This document shows, one piece after another, positions 13,354-29,035 of a stretch of 29,035 nucleotides of DNA (positions are counted from its first letter, which is position 1; each line of letters starts with the position of its first letter). The notes beneath the pieces are model-generated. The model saw only the letters and a list, made by a program, of their open reading frames with translations. It did not search any database and was not told where the DNA came from. A program made the position numbers and the translations under genes. Location of the stretch: the IMG/VR virus record IMGVR_UViG_2671180727_000026. One strand, written 5' to 3'. This stretch comes from a virus (lineage: Duplodnaviria > Heunggongvirae > Uroviricota > Caudoviricetes).

Positions 13354-14436
13354 ATGAAAAAATTAACAGTGGCAATTTCTGCTGTAGCTGCATCAGTACT
13401 GATGGCGATGTCTGCTCAGGCAGCTGAAATTTATAATAAAGACAGTAACAAGCTGGATCTGTACGGGAAAGTTAATGCTAAGCACTACTTCTCCTCTAAT
13501 GATGCAGATGATGGTGATACTACTTATGCCCGTCTTGGCTTCAAAGGTGAAACCCAAATCAACGATCAACTGACTGGTTTCGGTCAGTGGGAATATGAAT
13601 TCAAAGGCAACCGCGCTGAATCTCAAGGTTCCTCCAAAGATAAAACCCGTCTTGCCTTCGCTGGCCTGAAATTCGGTGACTACGGCTCCATCGATTATGG
13701 CCGTAACTACGGTGTAGCATACGATATTGGTGCATGGACCGACGTTCTGCCAGAATTCGGTGGCGATACCTGGACCCAAACAGATGTATTCATGACTGGT
13801 CGCACCACAGGTGTTGCAACTTATCGTAACAACGACTTCTTTGGTCTAGTTGATGGCCTGAACTTTGCAGCTCAGTATCAGGGCAAAAATGACCGAAATG
13901 AAGTAACTGAAGCTAATGGCGATGGTTTCGGTTTCTCAACTACTTATGAGTATGAAGGATTCGGCGTGGGTGCAACCTATGCTAAATCTGATCGCACTAA
14001 TAATCAGGTTATCTACGGTAACAACGGTCTGAATGCTTCTGGTCAAAATGCTGAAGTATGGGCAGCTGGTCTGAAATATGATGCGAACAACATCTATCTG
14101 GCCACCACCTATTCTGAAACCCAGAACATGACTGTTTTTGGTAATAACCATATTGCCAACAAAGCACAAAACTTCGAAGCTGTTGCACAATATCAGTTCG
14201 ACTTCGGCCTGCGTCCATCCGTTGCTTACCTGCATTCTAAAGGAAAAGACTTGGGTGTTTGGGGTGATCAGGACCTGGTTGAATATGTTGATGTAGGTGC
14301 AACCTATTACTTCAACAAAAATATGTCCACTTTTGTTGACTACAAAATCAACCTGATTGATAAGAGCGATTTCACGAAAGCATCTGGCGTTGCTACCGAT
14401 GATATCGTTGCTGTAGGTATGGTTTACCAGTTCTAA
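13354..14436 (+). CDS. nmpC: OmpC/OmpF/PhoE-family outer-membrane porin, prophage-encoded (NmpC/Lc-like)
   Basis: 360 aa; signal peptide [23 protein letters not shown]; [17 protein letters not shown]... and C-terminal ...VAVGMVYQF are the classic general-porin N and C termini; sits between Q and the lysis genes in opposite orientation, as in DLP12. Confidence 0.95.
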
Positions 14437-21971: not shown

Positions 21972-22075
21972 AACAACCTCCGTGGTTAATCCGAATCAAG
22001 ATTAAAACTATGGTTGTTTTTAGTCAACAACCATTTTCGTTTGATGAAATAAAACCTTGGTTGTACATTTGATCT
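21972..22075. promoter_or_regulatory. OR-like operator/promoter region between divergent cro and cI
   Basis: 104-bp AT-rich gap with repeated CAACC/GGTTG-containing elements (AACTATGGTTG, CAACAACCATTTT, CCTTGGTTG) related to the palindromes at the pL-like promoter. Confidence 0.55.
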
Positions 22076-22765
22076 ATGAAAACAACACTCTCAGAAAGAC
22101 TTAAAGAAGCCAGATTAGCGCGAGGCCTTACACAAAAGGCGCTTGGGGATTTGGTCGGGGTTAGCCAGGCTGCTATTCAGAAAATCGAAACAGGGAAAGC
22201 TAACCAAACAACTAAAATCGTGGAGATCGCGAACGCTTTGGGTGTACGCGCAGAATGGTTATCTTCTGGCGTTGGAAATATGTCAGACAGTACAGTGCAA
22301 CCAATACAATCAACTGTCAGCCATTCCAAATACTTCAAAATTGACGTTCTTGATATAGAAGTCAGTGCCGGGCCAGGTGTAATCAACCGTGAGTTTGTAG
22401 AAGTTCTACGCTCGGTTGAGTACTCGTTTGACGATGCTCGTCACATGTTCGATGGCAGGAAGGCGGAAAATATCCGCATCATTAACGTGCGAGGTGACAG
22501 CATGTCAGGGACGATCGAACCAGGTGACCTGCTGTTCGTTGATATCACTGTTAAATCTTTCGACGGTGATGGCATCTATGCGTTTCTGTACGACGACACT
22601 GCCCATGTAAAACGTCTTCAAATGATGAAGGATAAGCTGCTGGTTATCTCTGATAACAAGAGCTACTCGCCGTGGGACCCGATCGAGAAAGACGAGATGA
22701 ACCGGGTGTTCATATTCGGTAAGGTCATTGGAAGCATGCCGCAGACGTACAGGAAGCATGGTTAA
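22076..22765 (+). CDS. cI: CI-type prophage repressor (N-terminal HTH, C-terminal LexA/S24-like autocleavage domain)
   Basis: 229 aa; N-terminus LSERLKEARLARGLTQKALGDLVGVSQAAIQKIETGK is an XRE-type HTH; C-terminal ...VRGDSMSGTIEPGDLLFVD...VKRL... carries the Ser and Lys motifs of S24 peptidases. Confidence 0.9.
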   Translation: MKTTLSERLKEARLARGLTQKALGDLVGVSQAAIQKIETGKANQTTKIVEIANALGVRAEWLSSGVGNMSDSTVQPIQSTVSHSKYFKIDVLDIEVSAGPGVINREFVEVLRSVEYSFDDARHMFDGRKAENIRIINVRGDSMSGTIEPGDLLFVDITVKSFDGDGIYAFLYDDTAHVKRLQMMKDKLLVISDNKSYSPWDPIEKDEMNRVFIFGKVIGSMPQTYRKHG

Positions 22766-22994
22766 TTTATCTACGACTTAAGGGAGCGAAGGTTAAGGTT
22801 TATACCACTCGGATTAGATATTGCACTAAATTCTCTATAAGAACGCCAAATCTGTTTGCATATTTCAGTAAATATTCTCGTTGTTAGCTGAGATTTGTTG
22901 CTACTGTCAGCAAAATGTCCCCCTATCTCGTAGCGGTTTTTATTTCGAATCATTATGTTAAGATGTTTCTGATTATAATGAATGGAAACATAAA

Positions 22995-23375
22995 ATGAGA
23001 AAAATCCTAATCGCTGCCATGATGGCATCTGTATTGGCTGGGTGTGCTTCTTCAGGCAACCAGCAACTCAAAAATGAAACTGAAATTAGTGTCCAGTCTA
23101 AACTTCAGGAAGGTAAAACAACCAAGAATGAGGTTAAATCTTACTTTGGTTCTCCTGATGCTGTTTCATATACTGACAGTGGAAACGAGATCTGGAAGTA
23201 CGCCTTTGCAAAAGTAAAAGTTAATGGCACCACTTTTATTCCATTCTATGGATTATTCCATAATGGAACGAACGGTACGAAAAAAGAACTTACTATTCTT
23301 TTTAACGATGACACGATTAAGAAATACACAATGTCAGAAACCCAAATAAACTCGAAATCAGGTTGGGCTGACTGA
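22995..23375 (+). CDS. lipoprotein moron (126 aa), possibly SmpA/OmlA (BamE)-like
   Basis: Signal peptide with lipobox (VLAGCASS); AT-rich; own upstream AT-rich region containing TATAAT; terminator immediately downstream; segment NEVKSYFGSPDAVSYTDSGNEIWKYAF resembles the BamE-family core. Confidence 0.75.
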   Translation: MRKILIAAMMASVLAGCASSGNQQLKNETEISVQSKLQEGKTTKNEVKSYFGSPDAVSYTDSGNEIWKYAFAKVKVNGTTFIPFYGLFHNGTNGTKKELTILFNDDTIKKYTMSETQINSKSGWAD

Positions 23376-23383
23376 TAATCATA

Positions 23384-23410
23384 CCCGGCAACCGCGCCGG
23401 GTTTTCTTTT
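23384..23410 (+). terminator. rho-independent terminator after the lipoprotein gene
   Basis: CCCGGC-aaccgc-GCCGGG followed by TTTTCTTTT, 9 nt after the stop codon. Confidence 0.65.
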
Positions 23411-23537
23411 CCTCCCCCTCATAACTCATACCGTCCAAAAAACCACCACACCTCACTTCAGTTATCGCTATGCGATGCAAGTCACAAAATAAATCCATCC
23501 TAAATACAACCAGTTATATTTAAAACAACCGATAAAA

Positions 23538-23578
23538 CAACTTTTGTTGTTGACGATAAAACAACTATAGTTTTAAAT
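23538..23578 (+). promoter_or_regulatory. pL-like early-left promoter with overlapping operator palindromes
   Basis: TTGACG (23550-23555), 17 nt, TTAAAT (23573-23578), directed toward gam-bet-exo; overlapped by the perfect palindromes CAACTTTTGTTG (23538-23549) and AACTATAGTT (23562-23571). Confidence 0.55.
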
Positions 23579-23771
23579 AAATTCATCGCAACGACACAAC
23601 GATACGGTAACCACCTGTTTCACCGTTGCGATGACCGCTTAGATCCGCAGCTTGAATTTCAGCAGGCTTCGGGGAGTGCGAGGGATGAAACGGACGCGTG
23701 AACGTCGGTGTGACCAGCTGAAATCAACTCAACATTTCATACCTTAGTCGCTTCAACGAGGCGGCTTAGTT

Positions 23772-24062
23772 ATGACAACCGGCGGCCATCCACCGCCTGA
23801 ATACGCGCAGAAGTCTTTATATGTTCAGCAGCCCAGCTTACGGGCAGGAGTTTTTATGGTTCATCAACATTACGGAACGCAGACCGTTAATCGAGGTGCG
23901 GTCATGCCAGGAATGCTGGTCAAACACAAAGATGGTACCTGGACTGCATCAGCTAATTTACGCGGACGGCTTTATCTGCATCGCGGCATCGAGCGCACTT
24001 ATACCCGTGATTTGCTCGTGGAAGTTTTTCTCGACGGACGCGGTAACGGCCTGAATCACTAA
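23772..24062 (+). CDS. hypothetical protein (96 aa; alternative shorter start possible) in the kil/cIII position
   Basis: ORF between the pL-like promoter and gam; not similar to lambda N, cIII or Kil as I recall them. Coding status uncertain. Confidence 0.4.
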   Translation: MTTGGHPPPEYAQKSLYVQQPSLRAGVFMVHQHYGTQTVNRGAVMPGMLVKHKDGTWTASANLRGRLYLHRGIERTYTRDLLVEVFLDGRGNGLNH

Positions 24063-24138
24063 CCCCCCTTTCCTGTTTTCCTAATCAGCCTGGCATTTCG
24101 CGGGCGATATTTTCACAGCCATTTTCAGGAGTTCAGCC

Positions 24139-24435
24139 ATGAACGCTTATTACATTCAGGATCGTCTTGAGGCTCAGAGCTGGGCGCGTCACTACCAGCA
24201 GATCGCCCGTGAAGAGAAAGAGGCAGAACTGGCAGACGACATGGAAAAAGGCCTGCCCCAGCATTTGTTTGAATCGCTCTGCATCGATCATTTACAACGC
24301 TGCGGGGCCAGCAAAAAAGCCATTACCCGTGCATTTGATGACGATGTTGAGTTTCAGGAGCGCATGGCAGAACACATCCGGTACATGGTTGAAACCATTG
24401 CTCACCATCAGGTTGATATTGATTCAGAGGTATAA
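24139..24435 (+). CDS. gam: Gam (RecBCD inhibitor), short GamS-type form
   Basis: 98 aa [98 protein letters not shown] matches lambda GamS; the in-frame upstream extension is interrupted by a stop codon. Confidence 0.9.
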
Positions 24436-24440
24436 AACGG

Positions 24441-25226
24441 ATGAGTACAGCACTCGCAACGCTGGCTGGGAAGCTGGCTGAACGTGTCGGCATGGATTCT
24501 GTCGACCCACAGGAACTGATCACCACTCTTCGCCAGACGGCATTTAAAGGCGATGCCAGCGATGCGCAGTTCATCGCATTGCTGATCGTCGCCAACCAGT
24601 ACGGCCTTAATCCGTGGACGAAAGAAATTTACGCCTTCCCTGATAAGCAGAACGGCATCGTTCCGGTGGTGGGCGTTGATGGCTGGTCCCGCATCATCAA
24701 TGAAAACCAGCAGTTTGATGGCATGGACTTTGAGCAGGACAACGAATCCTGTACATGCCGGATTTACCGCAAGGACCGTAATCATCCGATCTGCGTTACC
24801 GAATGGATGGATGAATGCCGCCGCGAACCATTCAAAACCCGCGAAGGCAGAGAAATCACGGGGCCGTGGCAGTCGCATCCCAAACGGATGTTACGGCATA
24901 AAGCCATGATTCAGTGTGCCCGTCTGGCCTTCGGATTTGCTGGTATCTATGACAAGGATGAAGCCGAGCGCATTGTCGAAAATACCGCATACACTGCAGA
25001 ACGCCAGCCGGAACGCGACATCACTCCGGTTAACGATGAAACCATGCAGGAGATTAACACTCTGCTGATTGCCCTGGACAAAACATGGGATGACGACTTA
25101 TTGCCGCTCTGTTCCCAGATATTTCGCCGCGACATTCGCGCATCGTCAGAACTGACACAGGCCGAAGCAGTAAAAGCTCTTGGATTCCTGAAACAGAAAG
25201 CCGCAGAGCAGAAGGTGGCAGCATGA
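24441..25226 (+). CDS. bet: Bet (Red-beta single-strand annealing protein)
   Basis: 261 aa [100 protein letters not shown]... matches lambda Bet. Confidence 0.95.
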
Positions 25227-25903
25227 CACCGGACATTATCCTGCAGCGTACCGGGATCGACGTGAGAGCTGTCGAACAGGGGGATGATGCGTGGCACAAA
25301 TTACGGCTCGGCGTCATCACAGCTTCAGAAGTTCATAACGTAATAGCAAAACCCCGCTCCGGAAAAAAGTGGCCTGACATGAAAATGTCCTACTTCCACA
25401 CCCTGCTTGCTGAGGTTTGCACCGGTGTGGCTCCGGAAGTTAACGCTAAAGCGCTGGCCTGGGGAAAACAGTACGAGAACGACGCCAGAGCCCTGTTTGA
25501 GTTCACTTCCGGCGTGAATGTTACTGAATCACCGATCATCTATCGCGACGAAAGTATGCGTACCGCCTGCTCTCCAGATGGTTTATGCAGTGACGGCAAC
25601 GGCCTTGAACTGAAATGCCCGTTTACCTCCCGGGATTTCATGAAGTTCCGGCTCGGTGGTTTCGAGGCCATAAAGTCAGCTTACATGGCCCAGGTGCAGT
25701 ACAGCATGTGGGTGACGCGAAAAGATGCCTGGTACTTTACCAACTATGACCCGCGTATGAAGCGTGAAGGACTGCATTATGTCGTGGTTGAGCGGGATGA
25801 AAATTACATGGCGAGTTTTGACGAGATGGTGCCGGAGTTCATCGAAAAAATGAACGAGGCACTGGCTGAAATTGGTTTTGTATTTGGGGAGCAATGGCGA
25901 TGA
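25223..25903 (+). CDS. exo: Exo (Red-alpha 5'-3' exonuclease)
   Basis: 226 aa [167 protein letters not shown]... matches lambda Exo; ATGA overlap with bet. Confidence 0.95.
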
Positions 25904-26058
25904 AGCATCCTCACGATAATATCCGGGTAGGTGCGATCACTTTCGTCTACTCCGTTACAAAGCGAGGCTGGGTATTTCCCGGCCTTTCTGTTATCCGAAA
26001 TCCGCTGAAAGCCCAGCGACTGGCTGAGGAGATAAATAATAAACGGGAGAGTGTATGA
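25900..26058 (+). CDS. small ORF (52 aa) coupled between exo and the TGT-like gene
   Basis: Hand-translated [52 protein letters not shown]; start overlaps the exo stop and stop overlaps the next start (ATGA). Confidence 0.4.
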
Positions 26059-26807
26059 TTCATTTTCACGGTGGTCCAATAACTCCCGATACCTGTGCGT
26101 TGAAAGCCTGGAAAGGCAGACACGCATTCATCAGTTTTGCTAATCCAGCTCAGATTGATCTGGCTTCCGAAGTCACCCAATCATTTGCTCTTGATAATGG
26201 TGCATTCACATTCTGGACAAAAAATAAGGCCATAGACTGGAATGAATATTACAGATTTGTTGAACGCTGGGGTAATCACCCTCGTTTCTCATTCGCGGTT
26301 ATCCCGGATGTTATCGGCGGAACCAGTGAAGAGAATGACGCCCTGATTGCGGCATGGCCTCACGGTAAATTTATTGGTGCTCCGGTGTGGCACATGAACG
26401 AACCAGATGAGCGATTTATTCGTCTGTGCCATGAGTTTCCCCGCGTCTGCATCGGCTCGATGGGGGAATACGATGCAAAACGACCGAGAGCGTGTCGGGC
26501 TAAACTACGCGATCTTATACGTCATGTTGTAGATCAGTACGGCTACCCAATCACCAAGATTCATGGGTTACGGATGTTAAATAAAGACATTTTTACTCAT
26601 GTACCGCTTTCGTCTGCAGACAGCACGAACGTCGCAAGAAATATAGGCATCGACAAATCCTGGGTAGGTTCGCCATATGCTCCCGCAAGTAAAGAAACCC
26701 GTACGCAAGTTCTTGTGGAACGCATTGAATCATTCAACAGTGCCAGTTCACTTAATTACAACGCTGAACGGGACGTCTTTACCCCTCAACTGGCATTCGA
26801 AGTGTGA
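26055..26807 (+). CDS. tRNA-guanine transglycosylase (TGT)-superfamily protein lacking the zinc subdomain; DpdA-like putative DNA-guanine transglycosylase
   Basis: Colinear matches to TGT core motifs: ALDNGAF (cf. DSGGFQ), CIGSMGE (cf. GGLAVGE), HGLRM (cf. LMGVG), SSADSTNVARNIG (cf. FDCVMPTRNARNG). The protein ends about 60 residues later with no CxCxxC...H zinc motif. Sits in the early-left operon after exo. Confidence 0.65.
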   Translation: MIHFHGGPITPDTCALKAWKGRHAFISFANPAQIDLASEVTQSFALDNGAFTFWTKNKAIDWNEYYRFVERWGNHPRFSFAVIPDVIGGTSEENDALIAAWPHGKFIGAPVWHMNEPDERFIRLCHEFPRVCIGSMGEYDAKRPRACRAKLRDLIRHVVDQYGYPITKIHGLRMLNKDIFTHVPLSSADSTNVARNIGIDKSWVGSPYAPASKETRTQVLVERIESFNSASSLNYNAERDVFTPQLAFEV

Positions 26808-26814
26808 GGCCAAT

Positions 26815-27030
26815 ATGACAATAGAACATAATAACGCCCTTCGCAGCATTGCCCGTCAGGCTAATTCTGAAATCAAAAAAGCCAGACAGCAGTTTCCGGA
26901 TAAAAACGTCGATGACATTTGCCGTAGCGTACTAAAGAAGCACCGCGAAACGGTAACGCTGATGGGATTCACACCGACTCATTTAAGCCTGGCGATCGGC
27001 ATGTTAAACGGCGTCTTTAAGGAACGGTGA
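26815..27030 (+). CDS. hypothetical small protein (71 aa)
   Basis: ATG preceded by GAGG; MTIEHNNALRSIARQANSEIKKARQQFPDKNVDDICRSVLKKHRETVTLMGFTPTHLSLAIGMLNGVFKER; no family recognised. Confidence 0.5.
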   Translation: MTIEHNNALRSIARQANSEIKKARQQFPDKNVDDICRSVLKKHRETVTLMGFTPTHLSLAIGMLNGVFKER

Positions 27031-27128
27031 ACATGAAAAGAAAAATCATCAGGGAGCTACAGGCTCCTTTTTTATTGTTCGCATTCATCCTCAAGCGTAT
27101 TAACCAACAATTCAGGGATTAATGGAAG

Positions 27129-27347
27129 ATGGCAGACATCATTGATTCGGCATCAGAAATCGAAGAATTACAGCGCAATACAGCAATAAAAATGCGTCGT
27201 CTGAACTACCAGACTGTATCCGCAACTCATTGTTGTGAGTGTGGCGATCCGATAGATGAGCGAAGACGCCTAGCTGTTCAGGGTTGTCGGACTTGTGCAA
27301 GTTGCCAGGAGGAGATCGAACTTAAGAACAAACAATGGGGACTGTGA
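27129..27347 (+). CDS. DksA/TraR-family C4 zinc-finger protein
   Basis: 72 aa with CECGDPIDERRRLAVQGCRTCASC (CxxC-N17-CxxC), the TraR/DksA C4 finger common in lambdoid early regions. Confidence 0.75.
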   Translation: MADIIDSASEIEELQRNTAIKMRRLNYQTVSATHCCECGDPIDERRRLAVQGCRTCASCQEEIELKNKQWGL

Positions 27348-27394
27348 TGGCCTCAAAGCAGCAAATTTCAACATCGTCCAACTGAGGTGTAAAA

Positions 27395-27673
27395 ATGTTC
27401 AGAATCATTTTTCCTAACACCTGGTACGTCGACCACCACGGCACTCCCTGCAAAATCCTGCGTTCTACCCACAACAAAGTTCACTACATCCGAAAAGGCA
27501 GAACATGTATCGCCAGCATGTTCCGCTTTAATCATGACTTTGAACCTGTGAATAAAGCTGATGCAGATCGGATAGCAGAAGAGATCGAAACGGCAGAACA
27601 CATTAAGAAGTTACGTGACATGCGTTCAAAAAGCAGAGGTAACCATGGAATCATACAGCCTCACACTCGATGA
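27395..27673 (+). CDS. hypothetical protein (92 aa)
   Basis: ORF between the TraR-like gene and xis; no family recognised. Confidence 0.5.
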   Translation: MFRIIFPNTWYVDHHGTPCKILRSTHNKVHYIRKGRTCIASMFRFNHDFEPVNKADADRIAEEIETAEHIKKLRDMRSKSRGNHGIIQPHTR

Positions 27674-28016
27674 GGCCTGTCAGTTTCTTAAGATATCCAG
27701 ACCAACCGCCACCAACTGGATACGAACAGGCCGCCTACAGGCAACACGTAAAGATCCAACCAAGCCAAAATCTCCTTACCTCACAACACGGCAAGCCTGC
27801 ATTGCGGCGCTTCAGTCTCCGCTGCATACTGTCCAGGTGAGCGCGGGTGATGGCATAACAGAGGAAAGAAAATGTCACTCTTCCGCAGAAATGAAATATG
27901 GTATGCCTCGTATTCGCTCCCGGGCGGGAAACGAATTAAGGAATCTCTTGGCACAAAGGACAAGCGGCAAGCTCAGGAGTTGCACGACAAGCGAAAAGCA
28001 GAACTCTGGCGAGTAG
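27645..28016 (+). CDS. xis: excisionase (HTH, Xis-like)
   Basis: [33 protein letters not shown]... is a typical excisionase/MerR-like HTH. The 3' end overlaps int by about 145 nt in another frame, so the true 3' extent is uncertain. Confidence 0.6.
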
Positions 28017-29035
28017 AAAAGCTAGGGGATTTACCTGATGTCACTTTTGAAGAGGCCTGCCTAAGATGGCTTGAGGAAAAAGCTGATAAAAAATCTCTCG
28101 ATTCAGATAAAAGCCGGATTGAGTTCTGGCTTGAACATTTTGAGGGTATAAGGCTTAAAGATATCTCGGAGGCAAAGATTTACTCTGCTGTAAGCAGAAT
28201 GCATAACAGAAAGACGAAAGAAATATGGAAACAGAAAGTTCAGGCCGCCATCAGGAAAGGTAAAGAACTGCCTGTTTATGAACCAAAGCCAGTATCAACT
28301 CAGACAAAGGCAAAGCATCTTGCCATGATAAAGGCCATTCTCCGTGCTGCAGAACGCGACTGGAAGTGGCTGGAAAAAGCGCCTGTCATCAAGATACCAG
28401 CGGTCAGAAACAAGCGAGTCAGATGGCTGGAAAAGGAGGAAGCAAAACGCCTTATTGATGAGTGCCCCGAACCACTGAAATCTGTCGTCAAGTTTGCGCT
28501 GGCAACTGGTCTGAGAAAGTCGAACATCATAAATCTGGAATGGCAACAAATCGACATGCAGCGACGAGTTGCCTGGGTGAATCCAGAAGAGAGCAAATCA
28601 AACCGCGCCATTGGTGTGGCGCTGAACGATACCGCCTGTAAAGTATTGCGTGATCAAATAGGCAAGCATCACAAATGGGTGTTTGTACATACCAAGGCGG
28701 CTAAGCGAGCAGATGGAACATCAACGCCTGCGGTCAGGAAGATGCGCATCGACAGCAAGACATCATGGCTATCAGCTTGTCGTCGTGCAGGAATTGAAGA
28801 TTTCCGTTTCCATGACCTCAGACACACCTGGGCAAGCTGGCTGATTCAGTCAGGCGTCCCATTATCAGTGCTTCAGGAAATGGGCGGATGGGAGTCCATA
28901 GAAATGGTTCGTAGGTATGCTCACCTTGCGCCTAATCATTTGACAGAGCATGCGAGGAAAATAGACGACATTTTTGGTGATAATGTCCCAAATATGTCCC
29001 ACTCTGGAATTATGGAGGATATAAAGAAGGCGTAA
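27872..29035 (+). CDS. int: lambdoid tyrosine integrase (IntD/IntR-like)
   Basis: 387 aa [40 protein letters not shown]... with C-terminal [44 protein letters not shown] (R...HxxR...Y catalytic residues); resembles DLP12 IntD. Stop codon coincides with the last 3 nt of the window. Confidence 0.9.

Follow-up and report, generated by a model that had tools for sequence, protein, structure and literature searches.

Does a temperate phage that carries no genes for the synthesis of a 7-deazaguanine base encode an enzyme that would place such a base in its DNA? This question is raised by a gene in IMG/VR record IMGVR_UViG_2671180727_000026, a stretch of 29,035 nucleotides (nt) of Caudoviricetes DNA, hereafter the window, that comprises the early half and the late half of a lambdoid prophage. 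Modification of DNA with 7-deazaguanines is an established phage counter-defense, which is itself targeted by host immunity, for instance by modification-dependent nucleases and glycosylases. An initial annotation described the gene, called dpdA-like below, as encoding a solitary relative of tRNA-guanine transglycosylase (TGT) and of DpdA, the enzyme type that exchanges guanine in DNA for 7-deazaguanine derivatives. The open reading frame (ORF) of 250 amino acids (aa) is present as described (Table 1), as are the four motifs in the order quoted there: ALDNGAF (residues 45-51), CIGSMGE (132-138), HGLRM (170-174), and ADSTNVARNIG (188-198). The call itself agrees with our results, namely, profile homology to the DpdA proteins of phages 9g and 7-11, the predicted fold, an invariant Asp/His/Asp set, and the absence of pathway genes. 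We judge it reasonably probable that the product is a DpdA-type DNA-guanine transglycosylase of a γ-proteobacterial clade of DpdA-only proteins, and that it acts from the early-left operon to insert a host-derived 7-deazaguanine into phage DNA.

Homology was examined with a family profile and alignment built from 48 diverse relatives of 31-79% identity, the sample to which the conservation values below refer. PHROG 887, which bears the label queuine tRNA-ribosyltransferase, matches the 250-aa protein with an E value of 2e-99. In hhalign comparisons, the family profile aligns with the validated DpdA of phage 9g over residues 41-197 (probability 98.3%, E 2.4e-14), with four motifs in register: LDNGAF/LDSGAF, PVWH/PCFH, HGLRM/HGFGI, and SADSTN/SCDSSS. 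It also aligns with the Salmonella phage 7-11 protein (100%, E 7e-44, 33% identity over 209 columns), whereas E. coli Tgt gives no match (probability 0.8%). The resemblance to the TGT family put forward in the initial annotation therefore holds at the profile level for the 9g and 7-11 proteins and fails for Tgt and for the Pfam TGT family. The protein has zero matches in Pfam, NCBIfam, and PADLOC; a Pfam scan of the 48 relatives returned none either, TGT (PF01702) included; and phmmer and hmmsearch runs of the protein and two family profiles against PDB sequences recovered no TGT or DpdA chain. The 9g enzyme behaves alike: it misses Pfam TGT, reaches the PADLOC DpdA model only at E 0.02, and recovers no PDB relative. 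Because a validated DpdA is equally silent, the silence of Pfam, NCBIfam, and PADLOC carries no weight against a DpdA assignment. Because canonical TGT is undetectable by sequence profile, the link to TGT runs via phage DpdA and the fold. The four motifs are beyond chance, since they coincide with residues that are invariant or at least 90% conserved in the relatives. Compared with the gene of Klebsiella phage RothD, the proportions of nonsynonymous (pN) and synonymous (pS) differences are 0.11 and 0.82, which indicates strongly purifying selection on the coding sequence; the dN/dS ratio is not meaningful in this comparison because synonymous sites are saturated. We consider membership in the phage DpdA family very probable.

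An AlphaFold2 model based on the diverse alignment has a mean predicted local distance difference test (pLDDT) score of 93 and shows eight β/α units forming a minimal (β/α)8 barrel. In the model, the conserved motif residues are predicted to lie at or just past the C-terminal ends of strands 3 to 8, with H113 at the end of the strand formed by residues 111-113. The best PDB neighbors of the model are Cap10, bacterial DpdA, and two TGTs. Cap10 leads bacterial DpdA by 1.1 Z units with a lower identity (10% vs 15%). Among viral structure models, the named neighbors with E values of 1e-10 to 1e-5 are phage queuine tRNA-ribosyltransferase or DpdA-type proteins, and unrelated barrels appear only at E > 1e-2. 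With TGT-type transglycosylases as the closest neighbors, the predicted structure places the protein in the TGT superfamily at the level of the fold, in keeping with the initial annotation. An earlier model built from close relatives only (pLDDT 73.7) was replaced; with it, Foldseek gave generic TIM barrels, and aTGT appeared at rank 4 with E 0.04.

Five residues, D47, H170, S187, D189, and S190, are invariant among the relatives, and D85, H113, G134, G171, L172, and R173 are at least 90% conserved. The two aspartates expected to be catalytic, the conservation of which the initial annotation had named as a check, are thus retained in every relative. For bacterial DpdA, structure and mutagenesis have established the roles of D95 (with F99 at +4), D130, H181, and the nucleophile D256 (PMC10164549), and the residue order in the window protein agrees with that order. 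D47 is the likely counterpart of D72 in 9g DpdA and D95 in bacterial DpdA. Four residues further on, F51 matches F99, the aromatic gate, in a column that holds Phe in 39 and Tyr in 7 of the 48 relatives. D189, the putative nucleophile, would correspond to D215 in the aligned CDSSS segment of 9g DpdA and to D256 of bacterial DpdA. H170 aligns with His196 of 9g DpdA, the conserved histidine named as a DpdA feature (PMC6884629), and the spacing from H170 to D189 is 19 residues, as it is in the 9g enzyme. Cap10 has an equivalent pair, H226 and D248. As had been claimed, the protein ends before the position of a TGT zinc subdomain: it stops 61 residues past D189, contains no CxCxxC motif, and has cysteines only at positions 14, 125, 132, and 147, none of which is conserved.

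Comparison with characterized systems places the protein closest to phage enzymes. The 9g protein (DpdA1, YP_009032326), for which preQ0 insertion has been validated, shares the LDxGAF, PxxH, HGxx, and xDSxx motifs, the signature histidine and its spacing, and the lack of a zinc motif. It differs in having 317 aa, with approximately 40 extra N-terminal and 60 extra C-terminal residues, in being only about 20% identical, in carrying its middle Asp at the position that aligns with G88 here, and in the location of its gene, which adjoins genes for FolE, QueD, QueE, and Gat-QueC. The 7-11 protein (YP_004782407 / AEK81947) belongs to the same family and is likewise encoded without pathway genes; it is about 35% identical, and 7-11 is a virulent 90-kb phage rather than a lambdoid temperate one. 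Bacterial DpdA (Salmonella Montevideo, PDB 7UI4) is a 413-aa protein with insertions Ins1-3 and a 128-residue Ins8, the last pinned by a CxCx2Cx22H zinc site (PMC10164549). These insertions and the zinc site are absent from the window protein, to which bacterial DpdA has no similarity at the level of hidden Markov models, and none of the dpdC-K genes of the bacterial Dpd island are among the neighbors of the window gene. The statement in the initial annotation that a missing zinc subdomain is characteristic of DpdA thus stands for phage DpdA1 and does not extend to the bacterial enzyme.

The gene is already known. Its orthologue in phage SfI, gp34 (YP_009147480), was catalogued in 2019 as a DpdA without pathway genes; the window gene is 99.6% identical to it in DNA, and the proteins differ by one residue. 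That survey covered 182 viruses and set apart, as a third group, 76 phages with DpdA but without genes for the synthesis of G+ or preQ0 (Hutinet et al. 2019, Nat Commun; PMC6884629). This DpdA-only group was the largest among the dpdA carriers in the census, and its modification status was judged hard to predict; in a similarity network, its γ-proteobacterial members formed a separate cluster, with divergence in function left as a question (PMC6884629). Supplementary Data 1 of the survey lists the proteins of SfI (YP_009147480), HK106, BTP1 (SIU02687, BTP1_023), SPN3UB, SEN1, SE131, 7-11, PEAT2, and Vibrio Athena1 (PMC6884629), all of which we recovered as relatives of the window protein. SfI gp34 and its cluster resemble the window protein in length (about 250 aa), the missing pathway genes, and an early-operon location. 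They show no difference of substance; the window gene is another copy of a catalogued gene.

The initial annotation also stated that no folE, queD, queE, or queC gene is visible, and our searches concur. When the FolE, QueD, QueE, and Gat-QueC proteins of phage 9g were compared with the window by tblastn, only short chance matches were returned (best E 0.057), and these genes are absent from the annotated SfI genome and from a 100%-identical prophage region of E. coli LWY6. By gene content, the window gene is therefore placed in the DpdA-only group of the 2019 survey. The further suggestion that an active enzyme would depend on host preQ0 or preQ1 is plausible by analogy, because lone DpdA proteins use these host bases in E. 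coli. When 9g DpdA, nt-1 DpdA2, or VH7D DpdA2 is produced by itself in E. coli, plasmid DNA acquires preQ0 or preQ1 of host origin, at roughly 10^2 to 10^3 per 10^6 nt (PMC6884629, PMC10516641).

Ties between the family and the deazaguanine pathway or DNA modification come from three relatives. In the temperate Caulobacter phage DMCA, a dpdA-like gene (39.7% identity; L007:4705-5726) directly follows a QueD-like ORF of 98 aa, which scores 22.5 bits against PF01242 (threshold 22.4); no other que genes are found within 5 kb. A 335-aa fusion of QueD and a DpdA-like barrel (P0244; L012:2840-3847) occurs in Joint Genome Institute (JGI) metagenome contig Ga0452210_009018, a single 24-kb phage-like contig; its QueD part (E 1.2e-24) is a complete QueD/PTPS domain at residues 7-134. 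A chimera of a Dam methyltransferase and a DpdA-like barrel (P0229; L013:5001-6266) is flanked by a TraR/DksA zinc-finger gene and gpA in a P2/186-type prophage, on the single Logan contig SRR27214370_135. Both domains of this chimera are incomplete, with positions 1-201 of 253 matched in the Dam-type N6-adenine methyltransferase profile and a barrel without its first 38 residues, and its sequence suggests that a deletion joined two DNA-modification genes that lay side by side. Because both domains are truncated, it counts mainly as a sign that the two genes were formerly adjacent. Another candidate, the long family member P0266, which joins a DpdA-like protein to a baseplate-hub domain, is an apparent chimera and was not used.

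From the observed homology and active-site conservation and the predicted fold, we infer a substrate, a product, and a biological benefit for the dpdA-like gene. Transcription with the repressor-controlled early-left operon would restrict production of the protein to the period that follows infection or induction, with none in the lysogen. By homology with bacterial DpdA and TGT, the reaction would proceed by double displacement, in which D189 would attack C1′ of a flipped-out deoxyguanosine while D47 would assist departure of the guanine. A replacement base from the host queuosine (Q) pathway would then be installed, presumably preQ0 and possibly preQ1 or the amide 7-amido-7-deazaguanine (ADG). 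With host pools as the only supply, modification of replicating phage DNA would be sparse and probably sequence specific. Such marks could blunt restriction in the next host; this anti-restriction role is one that we infer.

Several observations weigh against this assignment. There is no sequence-level match to TGT, bacterial DpdA, or Cap10. One base-recognition contact is also ambiguous: D114, the middle Asp of 9g DpdA and the counterpart of the base-recognition residue D130 in bacterial DpdA, falls opposite G88 in both the hhalign and MAFFT alignments, in a column that is Gly in the window protein and Asp or Glu in 31 of the 48 relatives, and the near-invariant D85 lies three residues upstream. 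From the alignments, either D85 or position 88 may provide the contact. Bacterial DpdA requires the ATPase DpdB (PMC10164549), and the window gene has no such partner. In the two DpdA-only phages that have been analyzed, modification is tiny or absent: 7-11 DNA contains dADG, not dPreQ0, at about 50 per 10^6 nt, or 0.02% of G (PMC6884629, Table 2), and DNA of mycobacteriophage Orion has zero modification (PMC6884629). Finally, our literature search brought up no later experimental test of a DpdA-only protein from a temperate phage, the lambdoid/P22-like subclade included.

One alternative is that the chemistry of the family has diverged, such that the fold and catalytic residues are kept while another base is exchanged or excised, or the protein acts as a DNA glycosylase, and no 7-deazaguanine is involved. 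Orion, which is unmodified, grows on a host without a preQ0 pathway, yet its DpdA clade is conserved in dozens of mycobacteriophages; functional divergence of such proteins was explicitly left possible (PMC6884629), and Gly at position 88 of the window protein also favors this idea. However, γ-proteobacterial hosts all make preQ0 (PMC6884629), dADG is present in 7-11 DNA, and the relatives adjacent to or fused with QueD connect the family to deazaguanine synthesis, so that we regard divergence as unlikely. A tRNA-modifying enzyme, which would exchange G34 or another tRNA guanine and thereby tune translation during phage growth, is suggested by the label queuine tRNA-ribosyltransferase in RefSeq (SfI) and PHROG 887 and by a fold common to TGTs. 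That label is a homology transfer, however, and the family profile misses both E. coli Tgt and Pfam TGT. E. coli Tgt and Z. mobilis TGT (PF01702) have a zinc site and tRNA-binding insertions; the window protein has neither the zinc subdomain nor the insertions that grip the anticodon stem-loop, and it shows no profile-level similarity to these enzymes. Moreover, its nearest validated relatives work on DNA, and E. coli has its own Tgt. We therefore consider action on tRNA very improbable.

The structural neighbor Cap10 raises another alternative, in which the protein would act on protein-linked deazaguanine, or would counter the type IV cyclic-oligonucleotide-based antiphage signaling system (CBASS) or QatABCD, and would not modify DNA. 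Cap10 of type IV CBASS (PDB 9NTN) is a 325-aa protein that works with the QueC-like Cap9 and with a cGAS/DncV-like nucleotidyltransferase (CD-NTase) that has a Gly-rich N-terminus, M(G/S)G(G/S)GG; none of these partners is near the window gene. The small lead of Cap10 over bacterial DpdA in the structural search is accompanied by a lower identity, PADLOC gives zero matches, and homology in sequence is to phage DpdA. Because partner genes are absent, with neither a CD-NTase nor a Cap9/QueC-like gene present in the window or seven other phage and prophage contexts, a Cap10-like or anti-CBASS role ranks low, and we think it highly unlikely. The DpdA assignment remains the one that we favor.

The family is widespread. 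It comprises 6,182 clusters at 90% identity and 906 at 50%, and among the matches listed, members are mostly about 250 aa. Across SfI and PhiR5_1, DNA identity to the window gene is 99.6-99.9%. A copy at least 99% identical is present in 100 of 5,426 complete E. coli genomes (~2%), where the NCBI Prokaryotic Genome Annotation Pipeline (PGAP) labels it hypothetical. By tblastn, 112 phage records contain a relative, with protein identities of 85% in Klebsiella phages, 68% in the P22-like phages BTP1 and SPN3UB, 59% in a Vibrio phage series, 37% in HK106, and 35.5% in 7-11. The temperate lambdoid and P22-like relatives that we examined carry the gene in their early operon, with recombination genes on one side and xis/int on the other in BTP1 and HK106. 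The RothD copy comes after O/P and has Ea22-like genes on both sides, and in Vibrio and Acinetobacter phages, the gene is found amid small unannotated genes. No conserved partner gene recurs across the phage and prophage contexts compared. In BTP1, the gene directly 3′ of the dpdA-like gene, eaA (L004:4267-5232), has a dATP/dGTP pyrophosphohydrolase domain (PF04447, E 4e-48); this juxtaposition of a purine-dNTP-hydrolyzing enzyme and a putative guanine transglycosylase may be a coincidence. A few database entries call for care. The unannotated 1,719-bp record OR850331.1 (“Staphylococcus phage SA 1298 Kay”) contains the gene at 68.0% identity and 362 bits, the same as in Salmonella P22-like phages, and is probably a mislabelled or contaminant sequence. 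Records OQ829281.1 and OR053651.1 give the dpdA-like gene the name “putative Co/Zn/Cd efflux system membrane fusion protein,” almost certainly in error.

Head and lysis genes come first in the window, followed by Q, nin, O/P, cII, cro, and cI and then by the early-left operon, which contains kil, gam, bet, exo, xis, and int. The coupling to a 52-aa ORF after exo that the initial annotation noted is evident in two overlaps: the ATG of the DUF1317 gene, for which PGAP gives an identical 52-aa annotation, overlaps the stop codon of exo, and its TGA (26056-26058) overlaps the dpdA-like ATG (26055-26057), in both cases as ATGA. The phrog_303 gene begins 7 nt past the dpdA-like stop, a TraR/DksA zinc-finger gene and a DUF4222 gene complete the neighborhood, and xis/int lie 3′. 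No sigma-70-like promoter was found on the plus strand between 23400 and 26055 by pattern scan, and the gene is, by its sequence context, inside the early-left operon and without a promoter of its own.

Table 1. Positions of the dpdA-like gene, its conserved codons, and neighboring features in the window
Feature	Position	Strand	Basis or remark
dpdA-like gene	26055..26807	+	ATG start, 250 aa
D47 codon (ALDNGAF), putative general acid/base Asp	26193..26195	+	48/48; aligns with LDSGAF of 9g
D85 codon (IPDVI), candidate base-recognition Asp, assignment ambiguous	26307..26309	+	47/48
H113 codon (PVWH), candidate counterpart of bacterial DpdA H181 and 9g H141	26391..26393	+	47/48; aligns with PCFH of 9g
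H170 codon (HGLRM), DpdA signature histidine	26562..26564	+	48/48; aligns with 9g H196
D189 codon (SADSTN), putative nucleophile Asp	26619..26621	+	48/48; flanked by invariant S187 and S190
bet	24441-25226	+	ORFs; annotation of SfI and E. coli LWY6
exo	25223-25903	+	ORFs; annotation of SfI and E. coli LWY6
bet and exo, early-left recombination genes immediately 5′ of the DUF1317/dpdA-like pair	24441..25903	+	
DUF1317 gene	25900..26058	+	52 aa from ATG at 25900; Pfam DUF1317 E 2e-33
phrog_303 gene, function not assigned	26815..27030	+	71 aa; PHROG 303 E 1e-34; PGAP hypothetical protein
Terminator-like hairpin followed by T-run	27051..27069	+	pattern scan; first strong one past the dpdA-like gene

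Other features of the window were noted. A 117-aa ORF (26677-27030, plus strand) overlaps the 3′ end of the dpdA-like gene, and the SfI record annotates this long form as gp33; PGAP starts the phrog_303 gene at the internal ATG 26815 and obtains 71 aa. The shorter form is favored because the PHROG 303 match begins exactly at its start. The TraR/DksA-type zinc-finger gene (27129-27347, plus strand) has a counterpart near the dpdA-like sequence of the unrelated P2/186-type prophage (L013:4777-5004), and its proximity in both prophages probably reflects shared early-operon content. From 22000 to 29035, terminator-like hairpins are over-represented (18 vs 6.9 ± 2.7 in shuffles) and promoter-like sites are under-represented (4 vs 9.6 ± 3.3). 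A 360-aa porin gene (13354-14436, plus strand; phrog_410, PGAP “porin”) occupies the interval from Q to lysis on the strand opposite to the late genes; in related PhiR phages the porin is called OmpD, and a porin gene is a classic lambdoid moron.

The window adds no new kind of element. The analysis shows a clade that is large, under strong purifying selection, and retains its catalytic residues, and that sits in the genetically tractable temperate phages SfI, BTP1, and PhiR5_1; the remaining question about the dpdA-like gene is experimental rather than computational. A more speculative proposal, which we hold to be rather improbable, is that the lambdoid/P22-like DpdA-only clade is not a bulk anti-restriction modifier, and either places sparse, sequence-specific marks from host pools or has switched its substrate. 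The sparse marks may be the amide ADG, as in 7-11, a base that is also bound by Cap10, and may mimic the self-mark of bacterial Dpd restriction-modification islands. A switched substrate may be a non-DNA target or a base other than a deazaguanine. If this proposal is true, either outcome would account for the retention, by thousands of temperate phages, of a minimal 250-aa barrel, under strong purifying selection, without the genes of the pathway.

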